A stretch of DNA of 33,356 nt, taken from assembly GCA_037442925.1 (NCBI GenBank), contig JBBIPG010000019.1, forward strand, positions 1 through 33,356, given 5' to 3'. How positions within the stretch are numbered: position 1 is the stretch's first letter; each line of letters starts with the position of its first letter. The notes under the pieces were generated by a model. That model searched no databases and had not been told where the DNA came from. It worked only from the letters and a program-made list of their open reading frames with translations. The stretch is from Candidatus Fraserbacteria bacterium (lineage in GTDB: Bacteria; Bipolaricaulota; Bipolaricaulia; RBG-16-55-9). Shown in pieces: positions 1,395-30,906 of the stretch. A program made the position numbers and the translations under genes.

Positions 1395-4055
1395 TCATGA
1401 TTCCTCCTTTGGGTTGGGTGATGGAGCCGCCCTCACCAGCAGCTCGGCTTTTTGTGAAGCAGTCCGCGCCGGTGTGTCAGCGCGGCCAGTCAGTGCCAGA
1501 AGCGCCGGGAAGAAGAGAGCCGTGGCGAGAAAGGCATAGAAGACGGCAAGGCCCACCAGCAAGCCGAAGTCACGGGTCCACGTAATGGTGCTGAGCATGA
1601 GCACAAAGAAGGCTGAGGCCGTCGTAAAGAACGCAGCGAAGAGGGCTTCACCCGTGCGCGCTGTCGCCTTCACTAAATCTTTTTCTTCGATGAAGCGCTG
1701 CAGCAGATGAATGGCGTAGCCGACTCCTAAGCCAATGCTGATCGCGGCTACGATCGCCGTCGAGGCATTGAGCTCAATCCCCAATAGATTCACCGTGCCC
1801 AGAAGGAAGCCTGTCACGAGCACCATGGGGAAGAGCGCCATGGCTCCCCAGACCGCTGAACGGAGCAAGAGCACGATCACGCCCAAGCACAAGGCGAACG
1901 CGATGAACACCGACAGAGTGAGTGATCGATGCAGCGACTCCAGCTCCAGTTGCTCTAAGAACGGCGCACCTGTTAGCTGTACGCTAAGACCAAGGCGTTC
2001 GAGCTTGGTCATGACCGGCTCTAAGCGTTTCTCGAGGTCTTCAGCCACACGGCGAATTCCGGTCTGGTCGGAGAACTTCATCGTGTTGACGCGCACCACG
2101 GATGCTTCATAATTCGAGCTACCAGCTTGTTTGATGTAGGCTTCCGCTCGCTGCCGCAGGGAGTCTCTGGCGAAGATCTCATCTAAGATCCAGTGGTACG
2201 CTGCGTCCGGGCTCTGTATGAAGCGTTCCATGAATCCCTGGGCCAGTTGGGAGTTGGCGGCGCGCACGTCGTCGATGTAGTGGGCGATACTGGTAATCCT
2301 GTGCGCATAGGGTGAGGCGGCTAAGGCCTCGGGAACTTCTTTCAAGAGCAACCTCATGACCTCCAAGCGCGCGACATCTCCTCTGAGATAGATTTGCACT
2401 TCATCGTAGGTGCGGAACTCCTGATTGATCTGGGTATAGACCTTGACGACGGGATAATCGGAAGGCATGATCCGTCGGTAATCGACCGTATAGGTCTGTA
2501 ACGAGCGGCCTTCCCAGTACCCGAAGGCCCCCAAGGCCAAACTGAAGATGAGCGCGACGATGGCCGCCGTCCGCCAGCGGAATAGACCCGTGTAGCAGGC
2601 AAGCCAGCGGCTGATGATGCTCTCCTTTGGGTGGCCAAAGAAGAGGCGCTCATGCGGCCAAGGCTCGACGCGCGGGCCTTCCTTGAACAGTTGTTTGGCC
2701 GCCGGGATGAGCGTCACCGTGACGATGAGGGCGCTCATCATCGAGAGAGCAGCGAGCAGACCAAACCAGCGCACCGGAGGGCTGGGCGCAAAGAGCAATG
2801 ATGCAAAGCCCACCACCGTGGTGAGTGTGGTAAGCAGGAGCGCACGCCCCGTTCGCGCCAGTGCAATGTCCATCGCCTCTGGTCCTTCATGCCGCTTGCA
2901 ACGCTCTTCTTCATAGCGATGCAAGAGATGGATCGAGTAGTCATCGCCAATCCCCAAGAGCAGCGGCACGACGGCTGCCATCAGGAAATTCAGCGGCACC
3001 CCCGTAAGTCCCAACAAGCCGAAGGCCCACACTCCCGAGATGCTCACGACCGCAAGAGTCAAGTAGAGGCTGGCCAGCCGGCGATACGACCCCACGATCA
3101 GCCCGATCAGTAATACACTCAGCAGGATACTGATCGGCAGCGTCACAGTCGGAAAGAGCTCTGGGCTGAAGGCCACGGCGGCCACGCCGATGAGCACGAT
3201 CAGTAATACACTCAGCAGGATACTGATCGGCAGCGTCACAGTCGGAAAGAGCTCTGGGCTGAAGGCCACGGCGGCCACGCCGATGAGCACGATCAAGACG
3301 AGCGCCAGATCTCCAGGGCGTGTGAGACGAAAGACCCAAGCCAACGTAAGAGCTACCAGCACCAATACAATAGGCGTCAGGCGTCGAATGTCGCGCTGGG
3401 TCGTCTGTTGGAAGACACCTAGGGTCTCACCATAACTGGCCAAGCCGATCTCCAGAGCCACAGCGCGTTGCTTAAGAGGTGCAAGCTTCTGCTCCGCCGC
3501 GCGCGCGACCTTCACGATATCGGCGTCTTTGGCAATCGTCGCCAGCGCCACGGCTGTGCCCTCCTGAGAAGTGAACTTCTTGAGCAGCGCCATGCGCTGA
3601 AAGGCCATGCGGATGATCTCTTCGAACGAGTAGCCCAGTTCGTCTCCAGCGAGGGGGAGGCTATAGAAGCGAGGATCGCCACCGCGCAGCTGTGAGCGCA
3701 CGAATTTAATAAAATCGGGAATACCCTCGGCAGAGATGACGCCGGGGACAGTCCGCAGCGCCTGTAGAACCTCTTCCATCTCGATCACGGACTGCGGACT
3801 GTCCACGCGATAGCCCGGAAGGGGTGCAAACCGGACTGCTATCAGATGGGAGAAACTCCCGACGCCAAACTCCTTTTCGATCTGGCGGGAGGCTTCCACG
3901 CGCGGGTGCTCCGGCACAAAGGACGACGGGTCATAGGCCACCTCAAGCCGCGGCAGTTGTGCTCCCAAGAAGAGGGTGATGAGCGCCAACCCCATCAAGA
4001 CGGCCTTGGGGTAACGTCGTGACAGCTGACTGATCCCGCCGAGCAGAGGCTCCAT
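1395..4055 (-). CDS. MMPL/RND-superfamily exporter
   Basis: 886 aa with two halves, each a TM segment, a large loop and a TM bundle. Motifs GIGDDYSIH...RY.EE, TG.ALLLTTLTTVVGF and GLGVGYAIH. Confidence 0.9.
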   Translation of the reverse strand: MEPLLGGISQLSRRYPKAVLMGLALITLFLGAQLPRLEVAYDPSSFVPEHPRVEASRQIEKEFGVGSFSHLIAVRFAPLPGYRVDSPQSVIEMEEVLQALRTVPGVISAEGIPDFIKFVRSQLRGGDPRFYSLPLAGDELGYSFEEIIRMAFQRMALLKKFTSQEGTAVALATIAKDADIVKVARAAEQKLAPLKQRAVALEIGLASYGETLGVFQQTTQRDIRRLTPIVLVLVALTLAWVFRLTRPGDLALVLIVLIGVAAVAFSPELFPTVTLPISILLSVLLIVLIGVAAVAFSPELFPTVTLPISILLSVLLIGLIVGSYRRLASLYLTLAVVSISGVWAFGLLGLTGVPLNFLMAAVVPLLLGIGDDYSIHLLHRYEEERCKRHEGPEAMDIALARTGRALLLTTLTTVVGFASLLFAPSPPVRWFGLLAALSMMSALIVTVTLIPAAKQLFKEGPRVEPWPHERLFFGHPKESIISRWLACYTGLFRWRTAAIVALIFSLALGAFGYWEGRSLQTYTVDYRRIMPSDYPVVKVYTQINQEFRTYDEVQIYLRGDVARLEVMRLLLKEVPEALAASPYAHRITSIAHYIDDVRAANSQLAQGFMERFIQSPDAAYHWILDEIFARDSLRQRAEAYIKQAGSSNYEASVVRVNTMKFSDQTGIRRVAEDLEKRLEPVMTKLERLGLSVQLTGAPFLEQLELESLHRSLTLSVFIAFALCLGVIVLLLRSAVWGAMALFPMVLVTGFLLGTVNLLGIELNASTAIVAAISIGLGVGYAIHLLQRFIEEKDLVKATARTGEALFAAFFTTASAFFVLMLSTITWTRDFGLLVGLAVFYAFLATALFFPALLALTGRADTPARTASQKAELLVRAAPSPNPKEES
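3104..3295. repeat. Perfect 93-bp tandem duplication (31 aa, in frame) inside the MMPL gene
   Basis: Copies start at 3104 and 3197. CGATCA occurs at 3104, 3197 and 3290. The peptide LIVLIGVAAVAFSPELFPTVTLPISILLSVL appears twice. Confidence 0.97.
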
Positions 4056-6534: not shown

Positions 6535-8019
6535 TCACTTCGGCTTGTGGCAGACCTGGCAGATATCTTCCGTGCGTCCCGCGTGATCGGCAGGGACCGG
6601 CTTCAACCCTTCCGGACCATGACAAGCCAGACACTGGCCCATGCCCACCAGACCATGAGGAATAGAAGGCGGAGCGGGGAGCGGTAACAACCCCACCCTC
6701 TGTTTGAGGTAGCGCACCAAAGAGGCAATCTCTTCCTCCGATAGCTCTCCACCCGCATCGCGCCCCATGCCGGGCATCCCCCCCGTGCCCTGGGAGATCG
6801 CGCGCGCCAGTTCCTCATCGCTCTTGCTGCCCAGCATCTCCTTGGAGGCGAGATTCGCCGTGGGGATCTGCGCTCCGGTAGGACCATGACACAGAGCACA
6901 AGACTGACTGTATATGGCACTGGGACTGCGCACGGTGGTCCCGGCCAACTCGTCCAGATATCTGGCTACTGCCAGGATCTCCTCGAAGGAGAGCGGCCCA
7001 CCTCGGGCGACGCTGAAGGCGGGCATTCCCGCTTTACCCTCACGAATCGTCTGTAGCACCTCTTCGTGCTCGAGCTTCCCGAAGAAGTCGGGATCATTCA
7101 GGCGAACCGTGGGCATCTTGTCGCCCTTGGGGCCGTGACAGCTGCTGCAATAGTTGTCAAAGAGAGTCTGACCAGAAGCCGCGATCCCTTCGGCCGAGAG
7201 CTGCAAGTAGGCAGTGAGCGCCCGGATCTCATCGTCGGTGAAAGGCCCGCCGAACTTCTGCCCGAAGGCCGGCATCCCACCGTGGCCCTCCTGGGCAATC
7301 TCCTTCAGAACTTCTTGGCCCTCTCTCTGGAGAAACTCCTTCGAGCGTAGCTCCACGCCCTCGACCTCATCCCCCCGGGCTCCGTGGCACTGGGCACAGT
7401 AGCGCTGGTAGAGGGAGCGGCCATCGCCCAACAGCCCGGCGGGGCGGATGACCGGCATCAGTCCTGCAGGCACACCCGCCGGATGGCACTTGCTGCAAGA
7501 TTCCACAGTGACCGCGTGGCACTGAGCACAATACCCCATCTGCGGGCGGTTGGTGGGCGAAGACCTGAGGTCATGAGCGATGTTCAAGTGGCAGTCCGTG
7601 CAACGGGTTCCTAACTCGACGTGGAGCTTGTGCGGGATGCGAATCTGAAGGGCATTGAACTTGAAACCCGTTTCATCCATGCGATTGGCCATCTCCTCGT
7701 GACAGCGAACGCAGTTGGGACCCACCCGATCCGGTTCAGCCATGAACCCTTGTCGATACCCTTCATACAAGAACTGATGCGGCTTACTGTGGCAGTCCAC
7801 GCAACGCACTTCGGCAAGAGACGGATGGACCAAGGAAGGAACGCCGCGGTTGGCCAGTCCTCCGTTCTCACCGTGGCAGGTGAGACAATACTCGGGATTA
7901 GAAGTCGTGTGGCGTGGCAGCCAGGAGGCAGCCCAAGCGGCGCTGCCCACAACCAGCAGCAGAACCAAACCCCATGCCCACAAGGGCATCCGCTTCCACC
8001 AAGGTGGCTCACGCCTCAT
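6535..8019 (-). CDS. Membrane-anchored 11-heme hybrid cytochrome c
   Basis: TM anchor, six closely spaced CxxCH, three class I domains (CxxCH...G(G/A)MP), and a C-terminal diheme PPSIPH..CLACH..H..CQVCH. Overlaps the stop of the Mo-family gene. Confidence 0.92.
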   Translation of the reverse strand: MRREPPWWKRMPLWAWGLVLLLVVGSAAWAASWLPRHTTSNPEYCLTCHGENGGLANRGVPSLVHPSLAEVRCVDCHSKPHQFLYEGYRQGFMAEPDRVGPNCVRCHEEMANRMDETGFKFNALQIRIPHKLHVELGTRCTDCHLNIAHDLRSSPTNRPQMGYCAQCHAVTVESCSKCHPAGVPAGLMPVIRPAGLLGDGRSLYQRYCAQCHGARGDEVEGVELRSKEFLQREGQEVLKEIAQEGHGGMPAFGQKFGGPFTDDEIRALTAYLQLSAEGIAASGQTLFDNYCSSCHGPKGDKMPTVRLNDPDFFGKLEHEEVLQTIREGKAGMPAFSVARGGPLSFEEILAVARYLDELAGTTVRSPSAIYSQSCALCHGPTGAQIPTANLASKEMLGSKSDEELARAISQGTGGMPGMGRDAGGELSEEEIASLVRYLKQRVGLLPLPAPPSIPHGLVGMGQCLACHGPEGLKPVPADHAGRTEDICQVCHKPK

Positions 8020-10244
8020 GGAGATCCCTCCTCTACTTTAACCAGCCGTACGACGGTGTCTTGCCAAGCCTGGCCTCCTGCCGCGGAGTCGGAGCGGATC
8101 GGTATCAAGGGCTGCACGTGGGTTCCGGCCTCCTTCCACCAGATGAGGGAGGTGTTGGGGTCCTGGCTGCGGAAGGCCCCACCTTGGGCGAGTCTTCCTA
8201 GTCCCCAGTGGCCCAGACCTCCGTGGATCGCGACCGTCTGCGGGTGAATCCCCTCCGTGGGGAAGGCCCGCACGCGGATCCGACCCACCTGGGATGAGAT
8301 CTCCACCCAATCGCCCTCATGAATTCTCATGCGCTTCGCCACCCCAGCATTGATCCATAGGGAGTTCCGGTGCTCGATCTCCATGAGCCACCAGAGTAAG
8401 GGGGTGACTCCGTCGTCTTGGACGGCAGTGTCAAATACGCTGAGCAGGAACTCGTCTTGTCCTAGCTGCTCATGTTCTGTCACGGCAAGATAGACCGGCA
8501 GCGCCGGTTGCTTGCGTAGAGCCAGAACAGACGAGAAGATCTCGAGTCGCTTCGAATCGGTCGAGAAGTCCCTTCCATAGTCGGGATGACCCGCCGGAGC
8601 CCAGATTCCGACCTCTGTGAGATGTTCGAGCCCTCCCTCGGCGGAGAGCTCCGGTATCGCCTGGGCCTGCTTTTCGACGTACTCTCTCATCGAGCCGAAA
8701 GGGAGAAATCTTCCCACTTCTACTCCCATCTGCTTGGCCAGCTCCAGCAGCACCTCCGGGATCGGGCGGGCTTCTCCCCAAGGGGAGATGACCGGCTGCT
8801 GGAGGGCCACGTAAGGGACGAGATCATAGGCCGGAGGGGAGTGGAGCTCCCAGCTCTCCAAGAAGGTAGCCGCCGGCAGGATGAGATCTGCCAGCTGGGC
8901 CGTCTCCGTCTGGAAGGAATCGCTCACCACCAGAAACGGGATCTTGTTTTCATCTTTCAAGATCTCTTGCACCATGTGCGGTTGGGGCTGCTCGAAGACG
9001 GGATTGGCTCGATCGATCCAGAGAAGCTCCGGGGAGGTTTCGCCCAACGAGATCTGAACGAAGAGCTCTTGAGGGGGAAGTGGGTTGATCGCTCCAGAAG
9101 GACGGGGCTCCGGGTCAGCGAGTTCATAGCGACGAGGCAGGCAGAGGCCGCCGCGCCGCTCCACATTGCCCGTAAGGGCCGCAAGCAGGAAGACCGCCCG
9201 CTCGTTCTGCAAGCCGTTCGCGCGCTGGGAGAGGCCGCCTCCGGTGAGGAGCAGCGCGGGATGCGTGGTGGCAAACTCGACGGCGATCCGACGGATATGT
9301 CCGGCTGCCACTCCACTGAATCTCTCCGCCGATTCGGGAGTATACGGGCGCAAGTGCTCTGCGAGTGCATCCATAGGCCAATTGGAGTGTTTCTCGAGAA
9401 ACTCCCGATCGTAGAGGCCCAGTTGCGTGATCACGTTGGCCATGGCCAATGCAACAGCTGCGTCGGTCCCTGACCGCAGGGGGAACCATTCGTCACTGCG
9501 GCCTGCCGTCCGGCTCAGTCTCGGGTCAAAGGTGACGAGTTTCGCCCCGCCGCGGCGGCCCTCGATGAGCCGTCGGATCAAGGGCACGTACATCTCATGC
9601 GACTCATACGGGTTGGCGCCGAAGTTTAAAATATATTTGGTCTGGGCGAGATCGGGAACATAGGAATCGGCTCCCCAGGTGAGCGAGAGGGCATAGGCTC
9701 GATTGGCAACTCTGAGCAGGCGAGCCTCGGAGACAGTCGGTCCGCCGAACGCTTGCAGAAAGCGCTGTGTGAGCGCATCTGACCTCTGGCTTGCGGGACC
9801 GCTCAAGAAGACGAACTGCTGCGCGTCGTTGTTGCGGATCTCTATGAGGCGGGAGGCGAGTTCGCTGACCGCTTCATCCCAGCTGATGGCCTGCCAGCGA
9901 CCGCTTCCTCGAGGTCCGGCACGTCGGAGAGGTCGCAGCAGTCGATCCGGCTGGAAGAGAAGCTGCACACCGGACAGTCCCTTGGGGCAGATCCCACCAC
10001 GGGCGTTTGGGTCTTTGGGATTGCCCTCGATCTTGACGACCACCCCATCTTCGAGAAAGGCTAAGATCCCGCAGCGGGCAGGGCAGAGGCGACAGACGGT
10101 CGGGACCGCAATGCGCGGCGCTCCCGTGGTTCGACCGACACTGCGGCCCCCTCGGGTGAGCTCTGTAGCCATCAGTCCATATTGAAAAACGAAGCCCGCT
10201 GTACCTGCCCAGAGAGCCCACTTCAAGAACTGCCTTCGGGTCAT
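8016..10244 (-). CDS. TAT-exported DMSO-reductase-superfamily (Psr/Ttr/Arr-like) large subunit
   Basis: TAT signal MTRRQFLK. FS0 motif CRLCPARC...ICPKG. Motifs DRLLRPLRR, W.AISWDEA, DPR.S.TA, TA.LADLILP, and C-terminal WIN...A...I..GD.V. Confidence 0.92.
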   Translation of the reverse strand: MTRRQFLKWALWAGTAGFVFQYGLMATELTRGGRSVGRTTGAPRIAVPTVCRLCPARCGILAFLEDGVVVKIEGNPKDPNARGGICPKGLSGVQLLFQPDRLLRPLRRAGPRGSGRWQAISWDEAVSELASRLIEIRNNDAQQFVFLSGPASQRSDALTQRFLQAFGGPTVSEARLLRVANRAYALSLTWGADSYVPDLAQTKYILNFGANPYESHEMYVPLIRRLIEGRRGGAKLVTFDPRLSRTAGRSDEWFPLRSGTDAAVALAMANVITQLGLYDREFLEKHSNWPMDALAEHLRPYTPESAERFSGVAAGHIRRIAVEFATTHPALLLTGGGLSQRANGLQNERAVFLLAALTGNVERRGGLCLPRRYELADPEPRPSGAINPLPPQELFVQISLGETSPELLWIDRANPVFEQPQPHMVQEILKDENKIPFLVVSDSFQTETAQLADLILPAATFLESWELHSPPAYDLVPYVALQQPVISPWGEARPIPEVLLELAKQMGVEVGRFLPFGSMREYVEKQAQAIPELSAEGGLEHLTEVGIWAPAGHPDYGRDFSTDSKRLEIFSSVLALRKQPALPVYLAVTEHEQLGQDEFLLSVFDTAVQDDGVTPLLWWLMEIEHRNSLWINAGVAKRMRIHEGDWVEISSQVGRIRVRAFPTEGIHPQTVAIHGGLGHWGLGRLAQGGAFRSQDPNTSLIWWKEAGTHVQPLIPIRSDSAAGGQAWQDTVVRLVKVEEGSP

Positions 10245-10257
10245 CTCTCTATCCTCC

Positions 10258-11166
10258 TCAGCTGAGCGGCAGGCTCTGGCCGCCGATCACCATGATGTAG
10301 CGCATGGCGAAGATCCCGATCATCACCAAGACCGCCGCGAGGGAAATCCAACCCATGCGACGATTGAAGTCCGGCAACGCCAAGATCGTCAAGGGCACCA
10401 GCGATCCCAATAAGAGCTCGACGCCCAAGAAGATCGGGCTGAAGTCGAGCGTGAGGATCAGGAGCGCTGCCTCCCGCGCCTCGGTATCTGCCGTCAGCAA
10501 CACAAGCACGTCCGAGAAGATCAAAAACAGATCGGCCAAGATCGCCGCCGCCAGAAGCCGACCCAAATCGACCATGATCTCATGGTATTGGGCACGTTCT
10601 TCCGGTGGCGCGAAGAGCCTGCGTATGGCCACAACCAAGATCATGAGGGCAATTCCCGACACCATCGCCGAGACCAAGAACAATATGGGCATGACAGCCG
10701 TGTTCCACAGGGCGCGCGCCTTGCTGAGTGCCAGAATAAAACCCGTATAGCCGTGGACAGAGATGGCTAGCGGAATTCCGATCAATCCGGTGATCTTCGT
10801 CCACTTGTCGTTCCCCCTGTGCATGAAGTAGCCGTAGATGAGGCAGTTGATGGGATAGATCGTGAGGAGGAAGCTGCCCCAGGTGACGGGTGATTTTATA
10901 TTGAGATAGGGGAAGAGGTGCCAGAAGCGCTCAGGCCGGCCCAAGTCAATGATCAAATTCAAAGGCGCCAGCACGAGCAGCACTGTCGCTAACACCACGC
11001 CGATAAACCCAATGGGCTTATATTTTTTCAGCCCAAATCCATAGGCCAACGTCGAGAGGATAAAGGAACCAGCACTCAGACCCGTGAAGTAGAAATAAAC
11101 GGCGATCCAGACTCCCAGCGGCGGCTCGTGCGCGACGTTATAGAGGACTTGAACTCCCTGTTCCAT
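10258..11166 (-). CDS. NrfD/PsrC-family quinol-interacting membrane anchor
   Basis: YFYFTGLSAG, DLGRPERFWH, SP.TWGS, YTGF.L, LWN motifs and about eight TM helices. Confidence 0.93.
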   Translation of the reverse strand: MEQGVQVLYNVAHEPPLGVWIAVYFYFTGLSAGSFILSTLAYGFGLKKYKPIGFIGVVLATVLLVLAPLNLIIDLGRPERFWHLFPYLNIKSPVTWGSFLLTIYPINCLIYGYFMHRGNDKWTKITGLIGIPLAISVHGYTGFILALSKARALWNTAVMPILFLVSAMVSGIALMILVVAIRRLFAPPEERAQYHEIMVDLGRLLAAAILADLFLIFSDVLVLLTADTEAREAALLILTLDFSPIFLGVELLLGSLVPLTILALPDFNRRMGWISLAAVLVMIGIFAMRYIMVIGGQSLPLS

Positions 11167-11172
11167 CTGCGT

Positions 11173-11832
11173 TCACTCCCCCGCCTGCGCGCGTGGGCGC
11201 AGGATCCCCAGCTTGGCCAGCCACCAGCGCACCCAGTCAACTTCCACCCGCTCTTCCGCCCCACCATAGGTGCGCATGGCGACCATATCGGCCCCGATGT
11301 AGAAGACATGAGGCAGCGTGTCCCTCTCCGGTTTGAGCACCTGGACGGCATTGGCAGCCAAGACCTTGGAGATCTCGCTTTCAGGGTCGTTGATGTCCCC
11401 GAAGATGAGAGCCCGCGTGGGACAGGCGTTCACGCAGGCGGGCTCTAAACCCACATCCACACGATGATGGCACCAGGTGCACTTCTGAACCACCCTCTTT
11501 AAGGGATCAAGATAACGCACGTCGTAGGGACAAGAAGCGATGCAATACTTGCAGCCAATGCACCGATGAGGATCTTGCATGACGATGCCATCCTCTCGTC
11601 GGAACGTGGCTTGGGTAGGACAGTTGCGCACGCAAATGGGATTCTCGCAGTTGTTGCAGAGCGCTGGCAGAAACGAGAGGCTGACGTTGGGGTAGCGGCC
11701 CTTCTGGACTACCTTGACCCAGTTGCGATAGACCCCCAAGGGGGTGCCCATCTCCGCCTTGCAGGCCACCTGGCAGGCATGGCAGCCGATGCATCTTCGT
11801 AAGTCCACTACCATGCCCCAACGGACGCTCAT
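11173..11832 (-). CDS. NrfC/PsrB/TtrB-type 4x[4Fe-4S] subunit
   Basis: CIGCHACQVAC, CNNCENPICVRNCP, CIGCKYCIASCPY, KCTWC...PACVNACP. Start placed at 11832 (RBS AGAGGA) because the ATG at 11853 overlaps the -10 element. Confidence 0.93.
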   Translation of the reverse strand: MSVRWGMVVDLRRCIGCHACQVACKAEMGTPLGVYRNWVKVVQKGRYPNVSLSFLPALCNNCENPICVRNCPTQATFRREDGIVMQDPHRCIGCKYCIASCPYDVRYLDPLKRVVQKCTWCHHRVDVGLEPACVNACPTRALIFGDINDPESEISKVLAANAVQVLKPERDTLPHVFYIGADMVAMRTYGGAEERVEVDWVRWWLAKLGILRPRAQAGE

Positions 11833-11851
11833 TGCGATCCTCTCTGCGGCC

Positions 11852-11915
11852 ATTCTAGGAAGGTCTTCAGCTCACTACGATGATCGGGATCAGCCATCGT
11901 TCTGATTCTGGTCAT
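11852..11915 (-). promoter_or_regulatory. Internal promoter for the B-C-A-cytochrome module: TAGAAT plus two Crp/Fnr-like boxes
   Basis: ATTCTA at 11852-11857. ATGATcgggATCAG at 11880-11893 and CTGATtctgGTCAT at 11902-11915. Confidence 0.7.
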
Positions 11916-11925
11916 GAGCCGTGCG

Positions 11926-13212
11926 CTAAAACGTGGCGAGTGCATAGTACGTGAGCCCCAATGCCGGAGGAATGAACAGGGCTGCCAGTTGGAGTTGCCC
12001 TACGGAGAGACCCAGCTCGTCCTTATAACCCGCTATAGACAGGATCAGAAAGAGGCTGATGAAGGCAATCCCCAAGGCTGTTCGCTTGGGCGCCTGCTCG
12101 GGAGATTCCAAGTAATGCTGCGGCTCCCGTCTCCGGTCGAGAAAGGGCCACAAGACAAAGAGGGCGAGAATCGCCCCCGGCAAGAGCACCCCGCCAATGT
12201 TCTCCGGGTTGATCACCGTGCCGGGCAGATGGGCTTCCATCCAGCCGGGGATCAGTTTTAAGAGCCCGTAGACCCAGAGGAAGTACCAGTCGGGCTTGAC
12301 GGACGGTGTTCCAGGCTGGGGTGGACCATAGATCTCAACGGGGTGCGCGGGAAAGAAGGCTGCCAGAAAGAGTAGCCCTCCCGTGAGCAGCAGGAAGAGT
12401 TGCGCCATCAAGACTGCCTGATGCGGCCACAGTGGCACGCCGATGAGCTTGCCCGCTGGGGCGCGTCCGCGGTTCGCTGCGGGCTCGGTATGCTTCTGCT
12501 CGATCATGATGAGTAGATGCAGGCCGATCAGGCCGAGGAGCAAGAGGGGCAGGAGCATGACGTGGAGCGCGTGAAAACGAGGGATGCTGCCCGGTGCCGG
12601 GAATTTTCCGGCAAACATGAGATCTGCTAAGTACGGCCCAGCCCAGGGGATAGAGCGCGCAATCTCGTAGCCGATCTTGGTCGCCGTCACCGCAAACTGG
12701 TCGAAGGGCAAGACGTACCCGACAAAGGAGGCCACCACCGTCAGACCCAAAAGCAAAAGACCTACAACCCAGTTGATCTCGCGGGGGTTCTTGTAGGCTC
12801 CGGTGAAAAACACTCTCAGCATGTGCAGGACAATCGCGGCGATCATGACGTGAGCCGCCCAGTGATGGAGCTGGCGGATGACGAAGCCAAACGGAGCCCG
12901 GTCGATCTTCACCACAGACACATAGGCTGCGGGGGCGTGTCCCTCCTCGAACTCGACGTGCTGGGTTGATGGCTCGTACATAAGCGCCAGGAAGATCCCT
13001 GTAATGACGAGCAAGACGAAGCAGAAGAGGGCGATCTCTCCTAGGAAGAAAGTCGAGTGGACCGGAAAGGCCTTGCGCAAGAATTTCTCTCTCAGACGGG
13101 TAAGACGTAGCCTCTCCTCCCACCCACTAGCCTCTGCTTGGGCAGTAGGCTTTGCTGTGGGCGGCTCCAGCGCACTTGCTGCTGTCTTGGGGTTCGACAT
13201 CTTTTCGTCCAT
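11926..13212 (-). CDS. fbcB: Cytochrome b of Rieske/cytb complex, copy A (unsplit, Thermus FbcB-like)
   Basis: RKAFPVHSTFFLGEI, heme-ligand His pairs (HHWAAH...LH and LHV...LH), PREINW, GY.LP.D, Qo motif KPDWY. Confidence 0.93.
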   Translation of the reverse strand: MDEKMSNPKTAASALEPPTAKPTAQAEASGWEERLRLTRLREKFLRKAFPVHSTFFLGEIALFCFVLLVITGIFLALMYEPSTQHVEFEEGHAPAAYVSVVKIDRAPFGFVIRQLHHWAAHVMIAAIVLHMLRVFFTGAYKNPREINWVVGLLLLGLTVVASFVGYVLPFDQFAVTATKIGYEIARSIPWAGPYLADLMFAGKFPAPGSIPRFHALHVMLLPLLLLGLIGLHLLIMIEQKHTEPAANRGRAPAGKLIGVPLWPHQAVLMAQLFLLLTGGLLFLAAFFPAHPVEIYGPPQPGTPSVKPDWYFLWVYGLLKLIPGWMEAHLPGTVINPENIGGVLLPGAILALFVLWPFLDRRREPQHYLESPEQAPKRTALGIAFISLFLILSIAGYKDELGLSVGQLQLAALFIPPALGLTYYALATF

Positions 13213-13219
13213 GGCTCCG

Positions 13220-13798
13220 TTAGGGGCCCACCCTTTCCGCGAAGCTACCGGCAGCCTCTAGCTCCCCTTGAGTATTGAAGCGGAGGGGGAGCTGAGGCAG
13301 CGGTCGAGGAGGCGGTCCTGAAACTACAATGGCTCCTCGCCCGGGATCATAGACTCCGGCATGGCAGGGGCAGAAGATTGCCTCCGAGCGCAGCTCGCTG
13401 AGCACCGTGCAGCCGAGGTGCGTGCAGATGGCGCTGTAGGCTACGAAACCCTCCGCCGTCCACTCCCGTCGCGTCGGCGACTCCAGCCTCGCTGGCTCCA
13501 GGCGTACGACGATCACGGTGTTCTCCTCAACGTCTTCCTTGCCCGCGGGCAGGGCGAGTGCGGCCTCGCTCACCCGAAGAGCGTCTCGGGTGATGCGCTC
13601 TCCCCGGCGCGGCCCCACGGCAAAGACCAACTTATCTCCTTCACCAATCATCTTGGTCGTCTGCTGCACCACCAGCGGCTTGAGCGAATTGACAGCCGAC
13701 AGCATCGCGAGCAGAGCACTTCCGGCCCCCAGACCCATAAGCCAGTGGAAGACCCGCCGGCGCGACAGACCTTTGGCCTTTGATTCTTCTCTTCTCAT
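13220..13798 (-). CDS. fbcF: Rieske [2Fe-2S] protein, copy A
   Basis: TAT-like LSRRRVF plus TM segment. CTHLGC, CPCHAGVYD and GPPPRPL. Confidence 0.95.
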   Translation of the reverse strand: MRREESKAKGLSRRRVFHWLMGLGAGSALLAMLSAVNSLKPLVVQQTTKMIGEGDKLVFAVGPRRGERITRDALRVSEAALALPAGKEDVEENTVIVVRLEPARLESPTRREWTAEGFVAYSAICTHLGCTVLSELRSEAIFCPCHAGVYDPGRGAIVVSGPPPRPLPQLPLRFNTQGELEAAGSFAERVGP

Positions 13799-13810
13799 CT
13801 CGTTAGCACC

Positions 13811-14173
13811 TCACCACGGAATACCGTCATCGCGGTCTTGGGTGACGGCCTCATGGGTGATGAAGTAACGACGGTAAAGCACGAGCATCAGCGCCAGACC
13901 CAGGAAGAGCACTCCCGCATCCAGTGCGAGCTGTCGCGGCGGAGCTGTGGCCAACTCCCCCATGAACTTGATGGCCCAGGCCATCACGAGAGCAGCCAAG
14001 CCCAGCGCCGCAATCAGCGACCAAACCGGTTCTGGTGGCCGCTCCGTCGGACCGGGCACCAGCTCTCGCCCCTCCAGCCAGACCGATAAGACCCCCTGCA
14101 CGCCGTAGAGCGCCAGAAGGAATCCCCAAGCGATCAGCGCGATCTGGTACGCGTCTAGGTGCGTAGGGATCAT
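13811..14173 (-). CDS. fbcX: FbcX-like 3-TM accessory subunit, copy A
   Basis: LYG..G..S.WLEG.EL.PG and C-terminal Y+++F...E......PW resemble Thermus FbcX as recalled, and it sits directly before the Rieske gene. Confidence 0.65.
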   Translation of the reverse strand: MIPTHLDAYQIALIAWGFLLALYGVQGVLSVWLEGRELVPGPTERPPEPVWSLIAALGLAALVMAWAIKFMGELATAPPRQLALDAGVLFLGLALMLVLYRRYFITHEAVTQDRDDGIPW

Positions 14174-14793
14174 GGCACCACCTCCTCAAAGAGATCGAGC
14201 ATGGTTGCGGAGCGGCTCTTGTGATAGCTCGTGAAATCGTCAGAATCGGAGTGAGCCAGAAGCACTCGCATCTTGCCAGGGACAATCGCTTGGTCGAAAG
14301 GGTCACCGGTGTCGAGCTTGCGTCGGAGCTCCACCACCGTGCCCTGCTCGCTTTCAGCACCTGCACTCTCTAAGATATCGTCACGTCCCCCCAGCTTCGC
14401 ATCTGCCGTATGCGAGACGAAATCGTTGGCGAAGTTGTCCTGCAGGTGTAGCCCTTCTGAATCCACATAAGTGATCAGGATGTCCGCGCCCTTCATCATG
14501 GGGCCTTCACCTCCGAGGCCTACAGCCACCCAGCCGCGATCGGGGCACCTCAGCCCGATGAAGATCTCATCTTCCACGATCGTCCAGTGGAGTTCCATGC
14601 CGGTCGCTTCATCGCGGTAGCTCTTGGTGTACTCACCCTCTTCAATGATCCCGTCGAGAGTGGCCGCGCGGAGCCCCAAGCGACGGGCCTGATCGGTCTC
14701 CCAGTTTCTGCGGAAGTCCAGGGTCAAAAGGGCAGCAATCCCGACAGCCAAGGCTAGTGCTATCAAGGGTAGCAACAGCCCGTTTCGCTGCAT
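14170..14793 (-). CDS. Membrane-anchored DOMON-domain protein, probable Met/His heme-b cytochrome
   Basis: N-terminal TM. GWVAVG, M.GADI, R.LDTGD.FD, ..AH.......YH are the DOMON core with candidate Met and His ligands. Confidence 0.85.
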   Translation of the reverse strand: MQRNGLLLPLIALALAVGIAALLTLDFRRNWETDQARRLGLRAATLDGIIEEGEYTKSYRDEATGMELHWTIVEDEIFIGLRCPDRGWVAVGLGGEGPMMKGADILITYVDSEGLHLQDNFANDFVSHTADAKLGGRDDILESAGAESEQGTVVELRRKLDTGDPFDQAIVPGKMRVLLAHSDSDDFTSYHKSRSATMLDLFEEVVP

Positions 14794-24452: not shown

Positions 24453-24461
24453 TGTTATAAT
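24453..24461 (+). promoter_or_regulatory. Extended -10 promoter (TGnTATAAT) for the DsbB-DOMON operon
   Basis: TGTTATAAT, followed by RBS GGAGGAGGTGA and ATG at 24495. Confidence 0.6.
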
Positions 24462-24494: not shown

Positions 24495-25637
24495 ATGCTC
24501 CAGACTCTATTCGCAGAATATGGTCTATACTTTGCTTGGCTTGTCTCTCTTGTCGCCACCGGCGGCAGCCTCTACTTCAGCGAAGTGATGGGGTTCATCC
24601 CGTGCGCACTCTGCTGGTATCAACGCATCTTCATGTACCCCCTTGTAATCCTTTTGGGGATGGCGAGCTTCCGCAGTGACCGCAGGATCGCGGGTTACGT
24701 CCTGCCGCTGAGCGTCATCGGCTTGAGCATCGCGTTTTATCATTACTTTCTTGTGGAACAAAAACTCTTGGGGGAATTGGAGTCGCCCCTATGTCAGGTG
24801 GGCGTGCCCTGCGACACCAAATACATCGAATGGCTCGGCTTCATCACCATTCCCTTCCTGTCGCTGGTGGCCTTTACCCTGATCACAATTTTGATGGTCT
24901 ATGTCCGCCGCGCCTTGCGAGCGGAACCTGAGACGTGGGTATCTCCGGCTTCCGAGGTGAAAGCTCCAACCGAAGTGAAAGAACCCGTATTTAAGAGTTC
25001 GATCAGATTGCCCGCTGTGGCTCTGCTCTTGGCCGCCGCAGGCACTTTGACACTGGGGTTCGATCTCAGCCGGAAGTATCCCGGCGACCCACCCACCACA
25101 TGGTCGGTGGAGCGTCTGGTAGAGGTTCCAGAAGCCTTGCAGATAGATGGTGTGCTGCAAGAAGGTGAGTACCAGAACAGGCTGAGTTCCTTCAGAATCA
25201 AGATGGATCTCTATTGGAGCGTCCGTGAGGATCGGGTCTATTTCGGGCTGAAGGCCCCTACCCAGGGCTGGGTTGCACTGGGGTTCAACAGCGCAGTCCC
25301 CTTGATGAGAGGAGCAGACATCATCATCGGCTATGTCAAGGATGGCCAACTCGCTCTGGAGGATAGCTACGCGAACTCACGCATCGGCCATCAGACCGAT
25401 ATTCAACTGGGTGGTCGCGATGACATTCTGGATAGAGCGAGCACTCAGGATGAAGGGGGAACGATCATCGAATTCTCTCGACGTTTGGATACCGGCGATA
25501 CGTTTGACATGCCCATTCGTCCGGCCGAGAAACTGATGATATTGCTTGCTTACGGGCAGCGAGATGATCTCATCAGTTACCACGATCGGATGAGAGCGCT
25601 CATGGCGAATATTGAATTGGTTCCGGAAGGCCGTTGA
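24495..25637 (+). CDS. DsbB/BdbC-type disulfide-bond formation protein fused to a DOMON domain
   Basis: GSLYFSEV.G..PCALCWYQRI.MYP, second Cys pair CQVGVPC, GFITIPFLS; then a linker, a TM, and DOMON (GWVALG, MRGADI, LDTGD.FD, SYH). Confidence 0.9.
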   Translation: MLQTLFAEYGLYFAWLVSLVATGGSLYFSEVMGFIPCALCWYQRIFMYPLVILLGMASFRSDRRIAGYVLPLSVIGLSIAFYHYFLVEQKLLGELESPLCQVGVPCDTKYIEWLGFITIPFLSLVAFTLITILMVYVRRALRAEPETWVSPASEVKAPTEVKEPVFKSSIRLPAVALLLAAAGTLTLGFDLSRKYPGDPPTTWSVERLVEVPEALQIDGVLQEGEYQNRLSSFRIKMDLYWSVREDRVYFGLKAPTQGWVALGFNSAVPLMRGADIIIGYVKDGQLALEDSYANSRIGHQTDIQLGGRDDILDRASTQDEGGTIIEFSRRLDTGDTFDMPIRPAEKLMILLAYGQRDDLISYHDRMRALMANIELVPEGR

Positions 25638-25999
25638 TGCTGACGCATTTGGAAGCCTACGAGATTGGGCTCGTGGCCTGGGTGGCGCTGCTGGCGGTCT
25701 GGGGGCTCCAGGGGTTGATCGCGGCCTATGTGGAAGACCCCAAGCCCACAGCGGCAGAGCGCAGACCCGTGAACGAATCCTGGAGCGCTCTCTTGGTGAT
25801 TCTTGCTTTGATTGGGCTGGAGATCTTCTGGGCCGTGCTCTTTGTAAGAGGAATCTTCGAAGGAGCGTCATCGAACACGTTGGCCTTATATGGGGTCTTG
25901 CTCACCTTCACTTTGGCAGCTGCATTGATCGTCTATCGGCGCGCCTTCGTGCCGGATGAGACTCTACTTCAAGAGCGCGATGAGGGAGTTCCCTGGTGA
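25637..25999 (+). CDS. fbcX: FbcX-like 3-TM accessory subunit, copy B
   Basis: Clear paralog of 13811-14173 (THL.AY.I.L.AW...YRR.F...E...Q.RD.G.PW). Confidence 0.7.
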   Translation: MLTHLEAYEIGLVAWVALLAVWGLQGLIAAYVEDPKPTAAERRPVNESWSALLVILALIGLEIFWAVLFVRGIFEGASSNTLALYGVLLTFTLAAALIVYRRAFVPDETLLQERDEGVPW

Positions 26000-26016
26000 C
26001 TAAGAAGGGAAAATCG

Positions 26017-26679
26017 ATGTCGACGGGTGACAAGCCCAGAAAGCCAAACACGGGAGAGCAACGAAGGTTTTCGCGTCGAGCGCTCGTGCAATGGGTGCTT
26101 GGCGTCGGAGCCGCCTTCGCTATGGGAGCCATGTCCATCGCGGCTCTCTCCATTCGACCCACGAAGCGGAATGCCAAACAGCAGGAGCCGGTAGCAGCAG
26201 GGGACCGCCTGGTCTTCGTGATCGGAGCCAACAAAGGGCAACCCATTCGCCGTGACAGCATCCCGGTGAACGAAGCCGTGCTCGCCTTCCCTGAGGGAAA
26301 GGATGGCAATCCAGACAACTTGATCCTGCTCTGCCATCTCGATCCCGTGAGCCTCGCACCGCCGACCATCCTCGCATGGACGGCAGAGGGTCTTGTGGCC
26401 TATAGTGCTATCTGTACCCATCTGGGCTGTACGGCCTCTACTCTTCAGAGGATGGAAGGGACGGACTTCCCCCAGCTGCTGTGCCCCTGTCACAGCGGCG
26501 TCTTTGACCCGCAGAGCGGTGCCATCGTCAAAGCCGGACCACCACCGCGTCCTCTGCCACAACTGCCCATCCAGATCGATAACCAGGGAGAGTTGATCGC
26601 TGCGGGCTGGTTCGAAGAGCCCCCTGGAGTCGTTCCCAAAGGGGAGCTACGGCGATGGCGAGAGAAGAACAAGAACTGA
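26017..26679 (+). CDS. fbcF: Rieske [2Fe-2S] protein, copy B
   Basis: FSRRAL plus TM. CTHLGC, CPCHSGVFD, GPPPRPLPQLP. Alternative GTG start at 25996. Confidence 0.94.
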   Translation: MSTGDKPRKPNTGEQRRFSRRALVQWVLGVGAAFAMGAMSIAALSIRPTKRNAKQQEPVAAGDRLVFVIGANKGQPIRRDSIPVNEAVLAFPEGKDGNPDNLILLCHLDPVSLAPPTILAWTAEGLVAYSAICTHLGCTASTLQRMEGTDFPQLLCPCHSGVFDPQSGAIVKAGPPPRPLPQLPIQIDNQGELIAAGWFEEPPGVVPKGELRRWREKNKN

Positions 26680-28004
26680 AGGCTCCCCAGGCAGAGTCCG
26701 CACCTGCCCCGAGTTGGTGGGACGAGCGCCTGGATTGGAGACGTTTTAAAGCCAAGTACCTGCGCAAAGCCTTCCCGGTGCATCCCGCGTTCTTTCTGGG
26801 TGAGATCGCACTCTTTAGTTTTGTTATATTGGTTCTCACGGGAATTCTGCTGGCATTGACCTACGAGCCCTCTGCACAGCTTGTCGAGCTAGAGGGCAAT
26901 CAAGTTCCAGCAGCCTACGCCAGCGTCGTCGAGAACGATGGCACTCCTCTGGGGCTCTTCGTGCGACAAGTGCATCACTGGGCTGCGCATGTGATGATTG
27001 CTGCCGCCATCTTGCATCTCTTGAGGATCTTCTTCACCGGTCTTTACAAGAAACCTCGTGAGATCAACTGGCTCGTGGGTCTTCTGCTTTTGGTCCTCGC
27101 TGTGTTTGCCTCCTTCTCCGGCTATCTCTTGCCCTTCGATGCGTTTTCCGTCACCGCCACGGGGATCGGCTATCACATCGCACGCTCTGTCCCGTGGATC
27201 GGGCCGCAGTTGGCTGATTTCATCTTTGCCGGAAGATTCCCGGCACCGGGGACGATCCCGCGCTTCTATGCCTATCACGTGATCCTCATCCCCTTGTTGA
27301 TCATGGGGTTGATTACCTTGCACCTCTGGATTCTGCTCAAGCAGCACCATAGCCAGGCGCCTTCTGCGCGGATCTATGTGGGCAACCGCAAGATTCTGGG
27401 TGTGCCGCTCTGGCCCCATCAAGCTCTGCTGATGACCGTGCTCTTCTTGGTATTATTGGGGATCTTGTTCGCGGTGGCCGGTCTTTTCCCAGTTCACCCG
27501 GTGGCATACTACGGCCCACCGGAGCCGGCCACACCCGTCGTCAAGCCCGACTGGTATTGGCTCTGGCTCTACGGGGCTCTCAAGCTGGTCCCCACCTGGT
27601 TCGACTTTGAGGCCTTCGGAACGACGATCAATCCAGAGAACCTGGGGGGAGTCCTTCTCCCGTTGCTGCTGGTGACCCTGCTCGTGCTCTTGCCCTTCGT
27701 GGATCGATCCCGCGAGCCGGTGCACTTTCTGGAGCCGTCGAGCGCACATCCCATACGAACAGCGCTGGGCATAGGAACTCTCACGTTTCTCCTGATGTTG
27801 ATGTTCGCAGCCTACAATGAGGAGCTAAGCTTATCCCTCGAAGTGCTTCGTGTAGGGGTTCTGCTTGTGCCGCTTCTGACTGGAGCTGTTACGTACTGGA
27901 GTCTCCGTGGACGCCACGCCAAAGTCTCGTTGCCCGGAAGAGAGAACCCGCTCGAACCTACGCAGTCGCAAGACCTGACCCAGATCATTGACAAATCCGA
28001 GTGA
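26655..28004 (+). CDS. fbcB: Cytochrome b of Rieske/cytb complex, copy B
   Basis: RKAFPVHPAFFLGEI, HHWAAH, PREINW, KPDWY. Paralog of 11926-13212. Confidence 0.93.
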   Translation: MAREEQELKAPQAESAPAPSWWDERLDWRRFKAKYLRKAFPVHPAFFLGEIALFSFVILVLTGILLALTYEPSAQLVELEGNQVPAAYASVVENDGTPLGLFVRQVHHWAAHVMIAAAILHLLRIFFTGLYKKPREINWLVGLLLLVLAVFASFSGYLLPFDAFSVTATGIGYHIARSVPWIGPQLADFIFAGRFPAPGTIPRFYAYHVILIPLLIMGLITLHLWILLKQHHSQAPSARIYVGNRKILGVPLWPHQALLMTVLFLVLLGILFAVAGLFPVHPVAYYGPPEPATPVVKPDWYWLWLYGALKLVPTWFDFEAFGTTINPENLGGVLLPLLLVTLLVLLPFVDRSREPVHFLEPSSAHPIRTALGIGTLTFLLMLMFAAYNEELSLSLEVLRVGVLLVPLLTGAVTYWSLRGRHAKVSLPGRENPLEPTQSQDLTQIIDKSE

Positions 28005-28017
28005 TGTAAGTTATACT
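27975..28017 (+). promoter_or_regulatory. Copper-operon promoter with a Crp/Fnr-like box, embedded in the 3' end of cytochrome b copy B
   Basis: CTGACccagATCAT at 27975-27988, TTGACA at 27988-27993, 18 bp spacer, TATACT at 28012-28017. Confidence 0.7.
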
Positions 28018-28503: not shown

Positions 28504-30906
28504 ATGATGACACAACACACGGATACGAAGGAAATGGCCAGCGTCGTCCTTTCCGTGCGCGGAATGAGCTGCGCGTCTTGTGTAGCGCATGTGGAGCTGG
28601 CGCTACGCGAACTGCCTGGGGTTTCTCACGTAGTTGTCAACCTCGCCACAGGCACAGCCAGAGTCGAGTACACACCGGGAGTGGTCTTGGTAGACCAGAT
28701 GAAGCAGGCGGTGCGCGACATCGGCTATGAAGTTACCGAGAAAGTCGAAGCCGAAGAGGTCGTTGATCGCGAGCGTGAGGAGCGCCAGCAGGAGATCCGT
28801 CGCCAAGGGCTCTATTTGCTCTTTGCCGCGCCCGTAAGCCTGATCATCATGCTGGGCACGTTTCGCGACTATTGGATCCTGCCCTACTTCGTGCCGGAGT
28901 GGCTGGGAAACAAGCTGCTCTTGGGGCTTCTGGCCACTCCCATCGTGCTGGGTCCGGGAAGGCAGTTTTTCGTCAACAGCTTCCGAGGTCTGCGGCACGG
29001 CGTCACGGACATGAACTTACTCTATGCGACCGGAATCGGCGCCGCATATCTTATTGCCGTCATCAATACGCTCTGGCCCGAGGCGGGCTTTGGTGGTAAA
29101 GGAGCGACGTTCTACGAATCCGCGGCGCTGCTTACGACCTTCATTGTGCTGGGCCGCTGGCTGGAGGCGCTCACCCGTGGGCGCACCAGCGAAGCGATTC
29201 GAAAACTCATGAGTCTCAAGCCCAAGGTGGCTCGCGTGCTGCGCAATGGGCAAGAGCTGGAACTCCCCGCCGACGACGTCCAAGTGGGAGATCTCGTGTC
29301 GGTGCGACCGGGTGAGTCCATACCGGTCGATGGCCTCGTTCTGGAAGGCTACTCCGCCGTGGATGAATCGATGATCACAGGTGAGTCCATCCCTGTTGAA
29401 AAGAAGACCGGCGATGAAGTGATCGGTGGCACTATGAACAAGACTGGGGCCTTCCAGTTCAAAGCGACCAAAGTAGGCAAAGAGACAGCCCTAGCACAAA
29501 TCATAAAGCTCGTCGAAGATGCCCAAGCCAGCAAAGCTCCCATTCAGAAACTGGCCGATTGGGTCGCGGGACACTTCATCTTGGGAGTGCACGCCCTGGC
29601 GCTACTCGTCTTTGCCTTCTGGTTCTTCTTGGGCTATAGCTACTTCTTCGATCCCAGCACGAGCTTCTTGCTCTCACCTCACAAGCTGGGGGAGATCGGG
29701 GTCTTTGGGTTCTCGTTATTGCTCTCGATCACGGTGCTCGTGATCTCTTGTCCGTGCGCTGTGGGCTTGGCCACTCCCAGTGCGATGATGGCAGGAGCCG
29801 GAAAGGCAGCAGAGCACGGTGTGCTCTTCAAAGGGGCCGATGCCATCGAGGCGACGAGCAAGCTCACGACGATCATCTTCGATAAGACCGGCACGCTCAC
29901 CAAGGGTGAGCCTTCGGTCACGGATGTATCTGTCAACGGATCGATGAACGGATTAATGGATGATGAACTACTGGCTCTGGCAGCCTCGGTGGAGAAGGGC
30001 AGTGAGCACCCCCTGGGCGAGGCCATCGTCCGTGCCACTCAGGAGCGAGGCTTAGCAATCGCTGATGTCGAGAGTTTCAATGCCATTCCCGGTCATGGCG
30101 TCGAAGCCCGCTGCCAGGATCACGAGGTTCTGCTCGGTAACCGCAAACTCATGAGCGATCGAGAGGTGGACATTCAGGGCCTGTTATGGCAGGCCGAGGC
30201 GCTAGAGCAAGAGGGCAAGACCGTGATGTTCGTGGCCGTGGATGGGAAAGCCGCGGGACTGATCGCGGTGGCGGACACACTCAAGGATTTCTCGAAGGAA
30301 GCTCTTGAGCGCCTGCACCGGCTGGGGCTCGAAGTTGTGATGATCACAGGGGATAACCAGCGCACGGCACAAGCGATCGCTCGACAAGTCGGCATTGATC
30401 GCGTCTTGGCAGAAGTCTTACCCCAGGACAAAGCGGAAGAAGTGAGAAAACTGCAAGCGCAAGGCAAGAGGGTCGCGATGGTCGGCGATGGCATCAACGA
30501 CGCGCCTGCCTTGGCCCAAGCGGATGTAGGCATTGCCATCGGCTCAGGCACGGACGTCGCCAAAGAAACCGGGCATGTGATCCTCATTAAAGAAGACTTG
30601 CGCGATGTCGTAGTCGCCCTAGAGGTTGCGAAGGCGACCATGCGTAAGGTGAAACAGAATCTCTTTTGGGCCTTTGGCTACAACACGGTCATGATCCCGG
30701 TGGCGGCAGGAGTCTTCTACCCCCTAGCAAAGCTCGTGGTCAGCCCGGAAATTGCGGCCTTCTTGATGGCGACCAGTTCCGTCTCGGTCACCCTCAACAC
30801 GCTGCTCTTGAAACGCTTTGCACCCACACTGAAGCGCGAGGAGCAGCAGCCAGCGCTAACGGCCGGACAATGGGCGACTACAACCGCGACGGGCATAAAG
30901 GAGTGA
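28504..30906 (+). CDS. copA: Cu(I)-exporting P1B-type ATPase
   Basis: HMA motif GMSCASC, TGES, CPC, DKTGT, SEHP, GDGIND, YN and MxxSS. Confidence 0.97.

Follow-up and report, generated by a model that had tools for sequence, protein, structure and literature searches.

The 33,356-nucleotide stretch of a Candidatus Fraserbacteria genome analyzed here (contig JBBIPG010000019.1; hereafter, the window) contains two operons, copy A and copy B, each encoding a DOMON domain protein, a small membrane subunit X, a Rieske protein, and a long cytochrome b. We propose, with a probability of about 0.6, that they encode a complex of the Actinobacteria/Thermus type in which an outward-facing DOMON domain inserted in the subunit FbcX binds haem b through a methionine and a histidine and is the first to take up electrons from the Rieske cluster. 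The initial annotation of the window had suggested that a DOMON haem b replaces cytochrome c as the Rieske acceptor. Conserved synteny, fusion of the DOMON and X proteins, invariance of the Met and His residues, and mutual exclusion with a tethered pentahaem cytochrome (P1) provide strong comparative support for this replacement, whereas the accompanying view of the DOMON protein as a separate FbcC-like subunit in the cytochrome c slot is not borne out.

The gene order DOMON-X-Rieske-cytochrome b is present in both copies (Table 1), with the DOMON and X genes overlapping in each (ATGA in copy A, TTGA/TGATG in copy B). Both DOMON domains retain the motifs noticed initially, MKGAD and SYH in copy A (Met100/His191) and MRGAD and SYH in copy B (Met271/His363). 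The absence of a c-type cytochrome from copy B also stands: no CxxCH motif was found in any frame within 1.5 kb on each side. The initial description of the locus, otherwise correct, omitted the pentahaem cytochrome gene preceding copy A and the BdbC/DsbB domain that opens the DOMON protein of copy B. Because the pentahaem gene, with five CxxCH motifs, overlaps the start codon of DOMON A by one base, copy A is not free of c-type cytochrome; no FbcC/QcrC-like c-type subunit was found in either operon, the only c-type protein of copy A being this member of the P2 family (see below). The copies share 44% identity in DOMON, about 40% in X, 48% in the Rieske protein, and about 58% in cytochrome b, and are, judging from these values, old, diverged paralogues.

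The same gene order recurs in other genomes, and thus is not due to chance. A profile of X identified 11 loci in 10 of 184 genomes of the phylum, every one between DOMON and Rieske genes, while a Rieske profile recovered the same 10 genomes plus two extra copies (one in tandem in G009 and one without X in G035). In a metagenome scan with a Rieske alignment, 80 of 576 loci were kept, so that the metagenome counts given here are not frequencies; the DOMON-X protein is encoded in 15 of these 80, one locus having a protein named Gemmatimonadales. The synteny anticipated by the initial annotation is thus conserved in relatives, and the DOMON-X operon is, on this gene content, conserved in at least two phyla. 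In a quick tree of cytochromes b, the 23 proteins of the DOMON type form one group (Shimodaira-Hasegawa-like approximate likelihood ratio test support 93).

The catalytic core of the complex is intact, because the haem-ligand histidines, the quinol-oxidation motif, and the Rieske cluster motifs are all present. His130, His217, and His232 of cytochrome b and its P-D pair are invariant in 50 of 50 cytochromes b, and His116, read directly from the sequence of both copies, completes the four ligands. The PDWY quinol-oxidation motif is found in both copies and in all 23 DOMON-type cytochrome b rows, and the FLGE and PDWY signatures of copy A are as in Thermus TTHA1930. Both Rieske proteins carry the two cluster motifs and a twin-arginine anchor, and their genes precede those of cytochrome b. 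The nearest NCBIfam models for the Rieske protein and cytochrome b are those of actinobacterial bcc complexes, matched below the cut-off.

Subunit X and the DOMON insertion

Helices 1-3 of the window's X match the Oceanithermus DUF7318 proteins with an hhalign probability of 99.6%. The Oceanithermus protein, 160 residues long with four helices, is encoded between a dihaem cytochrome c gene and a Rieske gene, a position that we take to be that of FbcX. X of the window has three helices against four in FbcX because the first helix is located on the N-terminus of the DOMON protein: FbcX helix 0 corresponds to residues 5-23 of DOMON protein A. In 20 DOMON proteins encoded beside a Rieske gene, the anchor corresponds to FbcX helix 0 (hhalign probability 95%, E 4e-8), whereas the N-termini of 19 DOMON open reading frames from other contexts do not (0.7%). 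Homology to FbcX/DUF7318 therefore extends over helices 0-3 and the C-terminal ...VPW end of X. The Pfam PF24002 cut-off of 27 bits was passed by Oceanithermus X (28.8 bits) and missed by the window, copy B X scoring 21.9 bits and copy A X giving no match; an ESM Atlas search for X returned nothing at 0.9 or above.

DOMON and X form a single open reading frame in 19 loci, 15 of them from the metagenomes and the others from 4 genomes; a search for longer homologues recovered only three fusions. The predicted model of the fused protein consists of a helix, DOMON, and three helices connected by low-confidence linkers (predicted template modelling score 0.51), and a fold search with it yielded only DOMON matches. 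On the helix-0 match and the fusions, DOMON is best described as inserted into FbcX at its first outward loop, with the two overlapping genes of the window being its split form.

The C-terminal part of X matches the N-terminal helices of actinobacterial QcrA in three of four PDB matches (7q21_A, E 0.014; 7e1v_M, E 0.098), and since these helices belong to solved complexes, the match supports, at such weak E-values, the assignment of X to the Rieske/cytochrome b complex. QcrA continues into the Rieske anchor, which would place the C-terminus of X inside and, given three helices, DOMON outside. Helix count, QcrA homology, and the BdbC fusion in copy B (see below) all suggest that DOMON likely faces outward, on the same side as the Rieske head. 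Prediction of a complex of Rieske A, X A, and haem, with DOMON A as partner, gave a score of 0.15 against a mark of 0.32, with no controls folded.

Proposed acceptor role of the DOMON domain

In 15 metagenome loci, the pentahaem cytochrome P1 is encoded without DOMON, and no locus examined has both. The C-terminal helix of P1 matches X helix 1 (hhalign 86%, E 5e-6), and hence P1 and DOMON hang on the same helix of X; the short X of the P1 loci matches X helices 2-3 (96%). Because both occupy the same helix and none of the loci has both, DOMON is considered, from these comparisons, to displace the tethered cytochrome P1. The initial annotation had named cytochrome c1/f as the replaced subunit; this has to be amended, as the nearest DOMON-less operons have P1 and a second pentahaem cytochrome is kept beside DOMON in some loci. 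The pentahaem proteins beside DOMON, in copy A, one more genome of the phylum, and 12 of the 15 metagenome loci, group with P2 and not with P1. P2 is encoded after cytochrome b in 8 of the 15 P1 loci and, where present, is likely the next carrier after DOMON. No upstream pentahaem gene is found in 9 of the 11 operons of the phylum, copy B included, and all of these keep DOMON with Met and His.

The P1-type operon has the order P1 (fused to X helix 1)-short X-Rieske-cytochrome b-P2 (L081, L090, L110, L115, and 11 more metagenome loci) and may itself be an undescribed type of complex III. Equivalence of X helix 1 to the QcrC anchor was considered and is unsupported (hhalign 8%).

The AlphaFold2 model of DOMON A (predicted local distance difference test score 95) has the DOMON beta-sandwich fold according to Foldseek and VIA matches. 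In this model, Met100 lies in the loop preceding the third core strand, E103-111, and His191 in the loop preceding the last strand, E193-200. Fold matches include EbdC (Z 13.9) and fungal cytochrome b domains (Z 13.8 and 13.1). The two residues are separated by 91 positions in copy A and 92 in copy B; in the plant CRR (CYBDOM) protein, the ligands are Met89 and His180, with the same spacing as in DOMON A (PMC10784552). All 26 intact DOMON domains encoded beside Rieske genes, about 30-56% identical to those of the window, have both Met and His, compared to 13 of 27 others. Two G001 rows with N gaps, one duplicate, and one EB_dh fragment were dropped from this tally, which otherwise reads 26 of 28 and 14 of 29 rows. 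Three paralogues nested in the Rieske-adjacent group and encoded outside the operon have Lys in place of Met, which may not mean loss of haem. Since PDB sequence searches with DOMON gave nothing significant, the equivalence of the ligands to those of cellobiose dehydrogenase rests on motif position and spacing. Together, these features make it likely that DOMON binds haem b through Met and His.

Several observations weigh against this reading. In fold, DOMON A comes closest to a domain that lacks haem ligands, the DOMON of dopamine beta-hydroxylase (Z 15.3; PMC4846438), so the fold alone is no proof of haem. A second histidine (128 in A, 299 in B) is equally invariant in the 26 domains, which leaves the Met/His pair less than certain, and the pair is not confined to the operon, being kept in the 13 non-adjacent domains mentioned above. 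Furthermore, the 26 domains are kin that form one weakly supported group, and their tally therefore is not an independent test; the QcrA match bearing on orientation is weak by E-value. DOMON could then be a haem-less accessory domain of FbcX serving in ligand binding, docking, or assembly, like its counterpart in dopamine beta-hydroxylase, and the DOMON paralogues of the same genomes, which often lack Met or His (e.g., G000:C8), would be in line with this. Such a role seems improbable to us, since it does not account for the retention of both residues in all Rieske-adjacent domains despite their low identity or for a spacing equal to that of the plant CYBDOM ligands, and docking leaves the exclusion of P1 unexplained.

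A different objection concerns the order of carriers. The pentahaem gene adjoining DOMON in copy A and in 12 of the 15 metagenome loci could itself encode the acceptor. In addition, several loci, among them L087, L089, L101, L102, L109, L111, and L117, have FbcX without DOMON or a c-type gene immediately before it, and a Thermomicrobiales locus is an example of X lacking an acceptor gene in that position; the family of complexes can therefore do without an operon-encoded acceptor. Accordingly, DOMON might bind haem b within the complex without being the obligatory first acceptor, with P2 or a soluble carrier reading the Rieske cluster directly and DOMON acting as a side branch, as a buffer, or as the point at which electrons from periplasmic donors enter in reverse flow. 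The tandem DOMON-DOMON arrangement in one genome (L137) and the continuation of copy A into an NrfC/NrfD/molybdoenzyme module of unknown direction are compatible with such a role. We consider it unlikely, because the 9 operons without an upstream pentahaem gene all keep DOMON with its Met and His, and because P2 already accompanies P1 in 8 DOMON-less loci and so is the second carrier there, while it is P1 that DOMON displaces.

The DOMON protein of copy B offers yet another explanation, namely that DOMON works chiefly in disulfide-bond formation, draining electrons from BdbC, and that its place in the Rieske operon is secondary. Residues 7-138 of this protein constitute a complete BdbC/DsbB domain (NF002849, 158.9 bits against a cut-off of 124) with both cysteine pairs, Cys37/40 and Cys100/106. 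The fusion also occurs in G001 of the same genus (L141:7946-9091, minus strand; 79% identical, N gaps being the only interruption), and thioredoxin/DsbA-like genes lie near some loci (L138, L040). However, it was seen in only these 2 of the 11 phylum operons and in none of the aligned fused DOMON-X proteins, whereas the link between DOMON and FbcX is far wider, and a primary role in disulfide formation would be very hard to reconcile with this distribution.

If, as we propose, DOMON is the first acceptor, quinol would be oxidized at the PDWY site. One electron would then take the Q-cycle route over the two b haems, and the other would move from the low-potential Rieske cluster to the haem of DOMON, which would hang on flexible linkers between helices 0 and 1 of FbcX. 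From there, electrons of copy A would pass to the pentahaem P2 and on to reductases in the periplasm or chains of multihaem proteins whose genes lie nearby, and those of copy B to a carrier encoded elsewhere (a cupredoxin or a c-type cytochrome) and to one of the two haem-copper oxidases of the genome, which also has six cytochrome b genes. The potential-setting positions are GY in Rieske A and GF in Rieske B, which predicts a low potential. Other DOMON haems have potentials of about +100 to +250 mV, and a Met/His haem b in DOMON would plausibly lie above the Rieske cluster. By the rule in PMC3509893, Rieske proteins with GY or GF are predicted at 120-160 mV, and a potential of +400 mV is given for CbsA in PMC13741234. 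In the genome, which spans 2.07 Mb and is 94% complete, a search for the futalosine family PF02621 gave no match.

A more general, tentative hypothesis, to which we give somewhat less than even odds, is that FbcX offers its first outward loop as an exchangeable acceptor socket, which may be empty (with a separate FbcC or with none) or hold either a pentahaem cytochrome or a DOMON haem b. In its DOMON form, the complex III of bacteria from at least two phyla would be built solely from b haems and an iron-sulfur cluster. It would not need the maturation of cytochrome c, would have converged on the design of archaeal CbsA, and, in one genus, would also be wired to a disulfide-forming enzyme. No part of complex III varies more, or is less well charted, than the acceptor of electrons from the Rieske protein; a 2017 survey states that the acceptors in its newly defined subfamilies were outside its scope (PMC5600118). 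If the proposed reading is true, there is a bacterial haem-b acceptor without the need for covalent haem attachment, and FbcX, a small subunit of obscure role, serves as the mount that takes one acceptor or another. The idea of a b-type acceptor, put forward for CbsA and the haloarchaeal Nar cluster, is long-standing and largely untested; because the soluble DOMON domain of 170 residues is easy to express, it becomes directly testable in a bacterial protein.

Gene neighbourhood and variants of the operon

The window is a respiratory island: around and between the two copies, it holds a molybdoenzyme module, several multihaem cytochromes, and a further Rieske/b6 operon, the third in the window and split (Table 1).

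Table 1. Positions of the operon genes, candidate haem ligands, and neighbouring features in the window
Feature	Position	Strand	Remarks
DOMON protein A, 207 aa	14793-14170	-	PF03351 E 6e-17, above cut-off
Met100 of DOMON A	14496-14494	-	
His191 of DOMON A	14223-14221	-	
Subunit X, copy A, 120 aa	14173-13811	-	Three membrane helices by hydropathy
Rieske protein A	13798-13220	-	Twin-arginine anchor SRRRV, CTHLGC, CPCHAGVYD
Long cytochrome b, copy A	13212-11926	-	Haem His 116, 130, 217, 232; FLGE, PDWY
BdbC/DsbB-linker-FbcX helix 0-DOMON protein, copy B, 380 aa	24495-25637	+	DOMON E 6e-21
Met271 of copy B DOMON	25305-25307	+	
His363 of copy B DOMON	25581-25583	+	
Subunit X, copy B, three helices	25634/25637-25999	+	Weak DUF7318 and QcrA_N matches, both below cut-off
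Rieske protein B	25996-26679	+	SRRAL, CTHLGC, CPCHSGVFD
Long cytochrome b, copy B	26655-28004	+	Four haem His, PDWY
Pentahaem cytochrome c, P2 family, 282 aa, N-terminal hydrophobic helix	15641-14793	-	Five CxxCH
NrfC/TtrB-like Fe-S protein, NrfD-family anchor, molybdopterin enzyme (PhsA/QrcB-like, below cut-offs)	8016-11853	-	Downstream of copy A
Third Rieske operon: Rieske, short cytochrome b, subunit IV fused to 9-CxxCH cytochrome	24266-17609	-	
Promoter-like site TTGACA-18-TATACT	27988-28017	+	11/12 consensus match only

The NrfC/NrfD/molybdopterin genes are a possible partner module of copy A, and genes resembling them are found close to the metagenome DOMON loci L055 and L065. The region 11853-6535 (minus strand) downstream of copy A also encodes, together with this module, an 11-CxxCH protein with three class I domains. 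Within the span given for the third Rieske operon, the genes listed are followed by those of two proteins with 18 and 11 CxxCH motifs and of a b561-type protein; in G026 (L133), a unit of this type comes directly after a copy-A-type operon. Copy B is followed by a copper-type P1B ATPase (28504-30906, plus strand), as are the operons of G001 and L036. In relatives, neighbouring genes hint at varied electron outlets: L037 has two for cupredoxins upstream, and L140 has one for a cytochrome cd1-like protein downstream. An MMPL-family protein (1395-4055, minus strand) has a near-perfect internal repeat of about 34 residues at positions of about 255-320, which may be a true duplication or an artefact of assembly.

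A promoter scan yielded 3 sites compared to 1.7 expected by chance. One of them, located after copy B, likely starts the next transcription unit and so would bound operon B at four genes. A perfect extended -10 element, TGnTATAAT, which was read from the sequence itself and is not among the sites of the scan, is found at 24453-24461 (plus strand), 34 bases before the start of copy B.

Variants of the operon include the tandem DOMON-DOMON mentioned above (G014, L137:8233-9417), two Rieske genes in tandem in G009 (L134:4378-5734), and a Rieske protein with SPCH in place of CPCH in G006 (L135). A frameshift in the DOMON gene of G001 was rejected as an artefact of an N gap. In G035:C53 (L166), a stand-alone secreted DOMON without Met (8269-8871) precedes a cytochrome b of another type (7051-8172), and a Rieske gene of the window's type, without X, is located about 5 kb downstream. 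Elsewhere in the window's genome, a copy-B-type cytochrome b (69% identical) is cut by the contig start (L143:1-1065, G000:C61), and a third DOMON-type operon may therefore be missing from the assembly. A third DOMON with Met and His (L142:2859-3401, G000:C20) directly precedes a further molybdoenzyme-NrfC-NrfD unit. The DOMON without His in G000:C8 (L004:1375-2064) lies between genes that read as a Crp-type regulator and a proline dehydrogenase-like protein, a setting that recurs in several relatives. In L147 (G000:C17:28848-23007), genes that read as Rieske and short cytochrome b run directly into others that read as RnfC/RnfD-like.

Comparison with known systems

Among the closest known systems is the complex of Thermus and other Deinococcota. 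The Oceanithermus loci L114, L126, and L130, which we take to be of the FbcC-X-F-B type, share with the window a homologous X, the order X-Rieske-cytochrome b, and the FLGE and PDWY signatures. They differ in having a separate dihaem cytochrome c before an uninterrupted X, whereas in the window DOMON occupies the first loop of X and there is no FbcC gene. In the actinobacterial QcrCAB complex (7q21, 7e1v), X helices 2-3 have a match, weak by E-value, in the N-terminal helices of QcrA, but X is a separate gene in the window, and the acceptor of QcrCAB is the dihaem QcrC.

Known haem-b DOMON domains, such as the cytochrome domains of cellobiose and pyranose dehydrogenases, EbdC, and plant AIR12/CYBDOM proteins, resemble that of the window in fold (Z 13-14) and, for CRR, in a Met...His spacing of 91. 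However, they serve flavin, pyrroloquinoline quinone, or molybdenum enzymes or cytochrome b561, and not a Rieske protein; the ligands of EbdC are Met and Lys, compared to Met and His in the window. Our literature search, in which several key reviews were not covered, found no paper on DOMON in a bacterial Rieske/cytochrome b operon, and a term search of the accessible text of PMC5600118 and its four supplements found no mention of DOMON.

A b-type acceptor for a Rieske/cytochrome b complex has already been proposed in print, as far as we found only for archaea (CbsA of Sulfolobales and the haloarchaeal Nar cluster). CbsA presumably has an EB_dh/DOMON-like domain, our search having shown only the presence of EB_dh in S. 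acidocaldarius. In the CbsAB-SoxLN(-OdsN) system, or cytochrome ba, the b-type CbsA is regarded as an analogue of cytochrome c1 (PMC5461723, PMC3189178). This system, like the operon of the window, also has a hydrophobic protein, a Rieske protein, and a cytochrome b. It is crenarchaeal, whereas the domain of the window belongs to PF03351 and EB_dh (PF09459) has no match in the window's genome, and the likeness is thus an analogy of working. In the haloarchaeal Rieske/cytochrome b-Nar cluster, a periplasmic cytochrome b was proposed as a shuttle, in a model described as untested (PMC3509893). The points of likeness to the window are a cytochrome b of the Actinobacteria/Thermus clade, a low-potential GF Rieske protein, and the absence of a cytochrome c gene; moreover, DUF7318 and EB_dh are both present in Haloferax volcanii. 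There, however, the b-type protein is encoded by a separate gene tied to NarGH, whereas in the window it is inserted in FbcX and the operon contains no narGH. What is new here would therefore be a bacterial variant, with a putative haem-b DOMON domain inserted in FbcX, that works like the archaeal systems without being a member of them.

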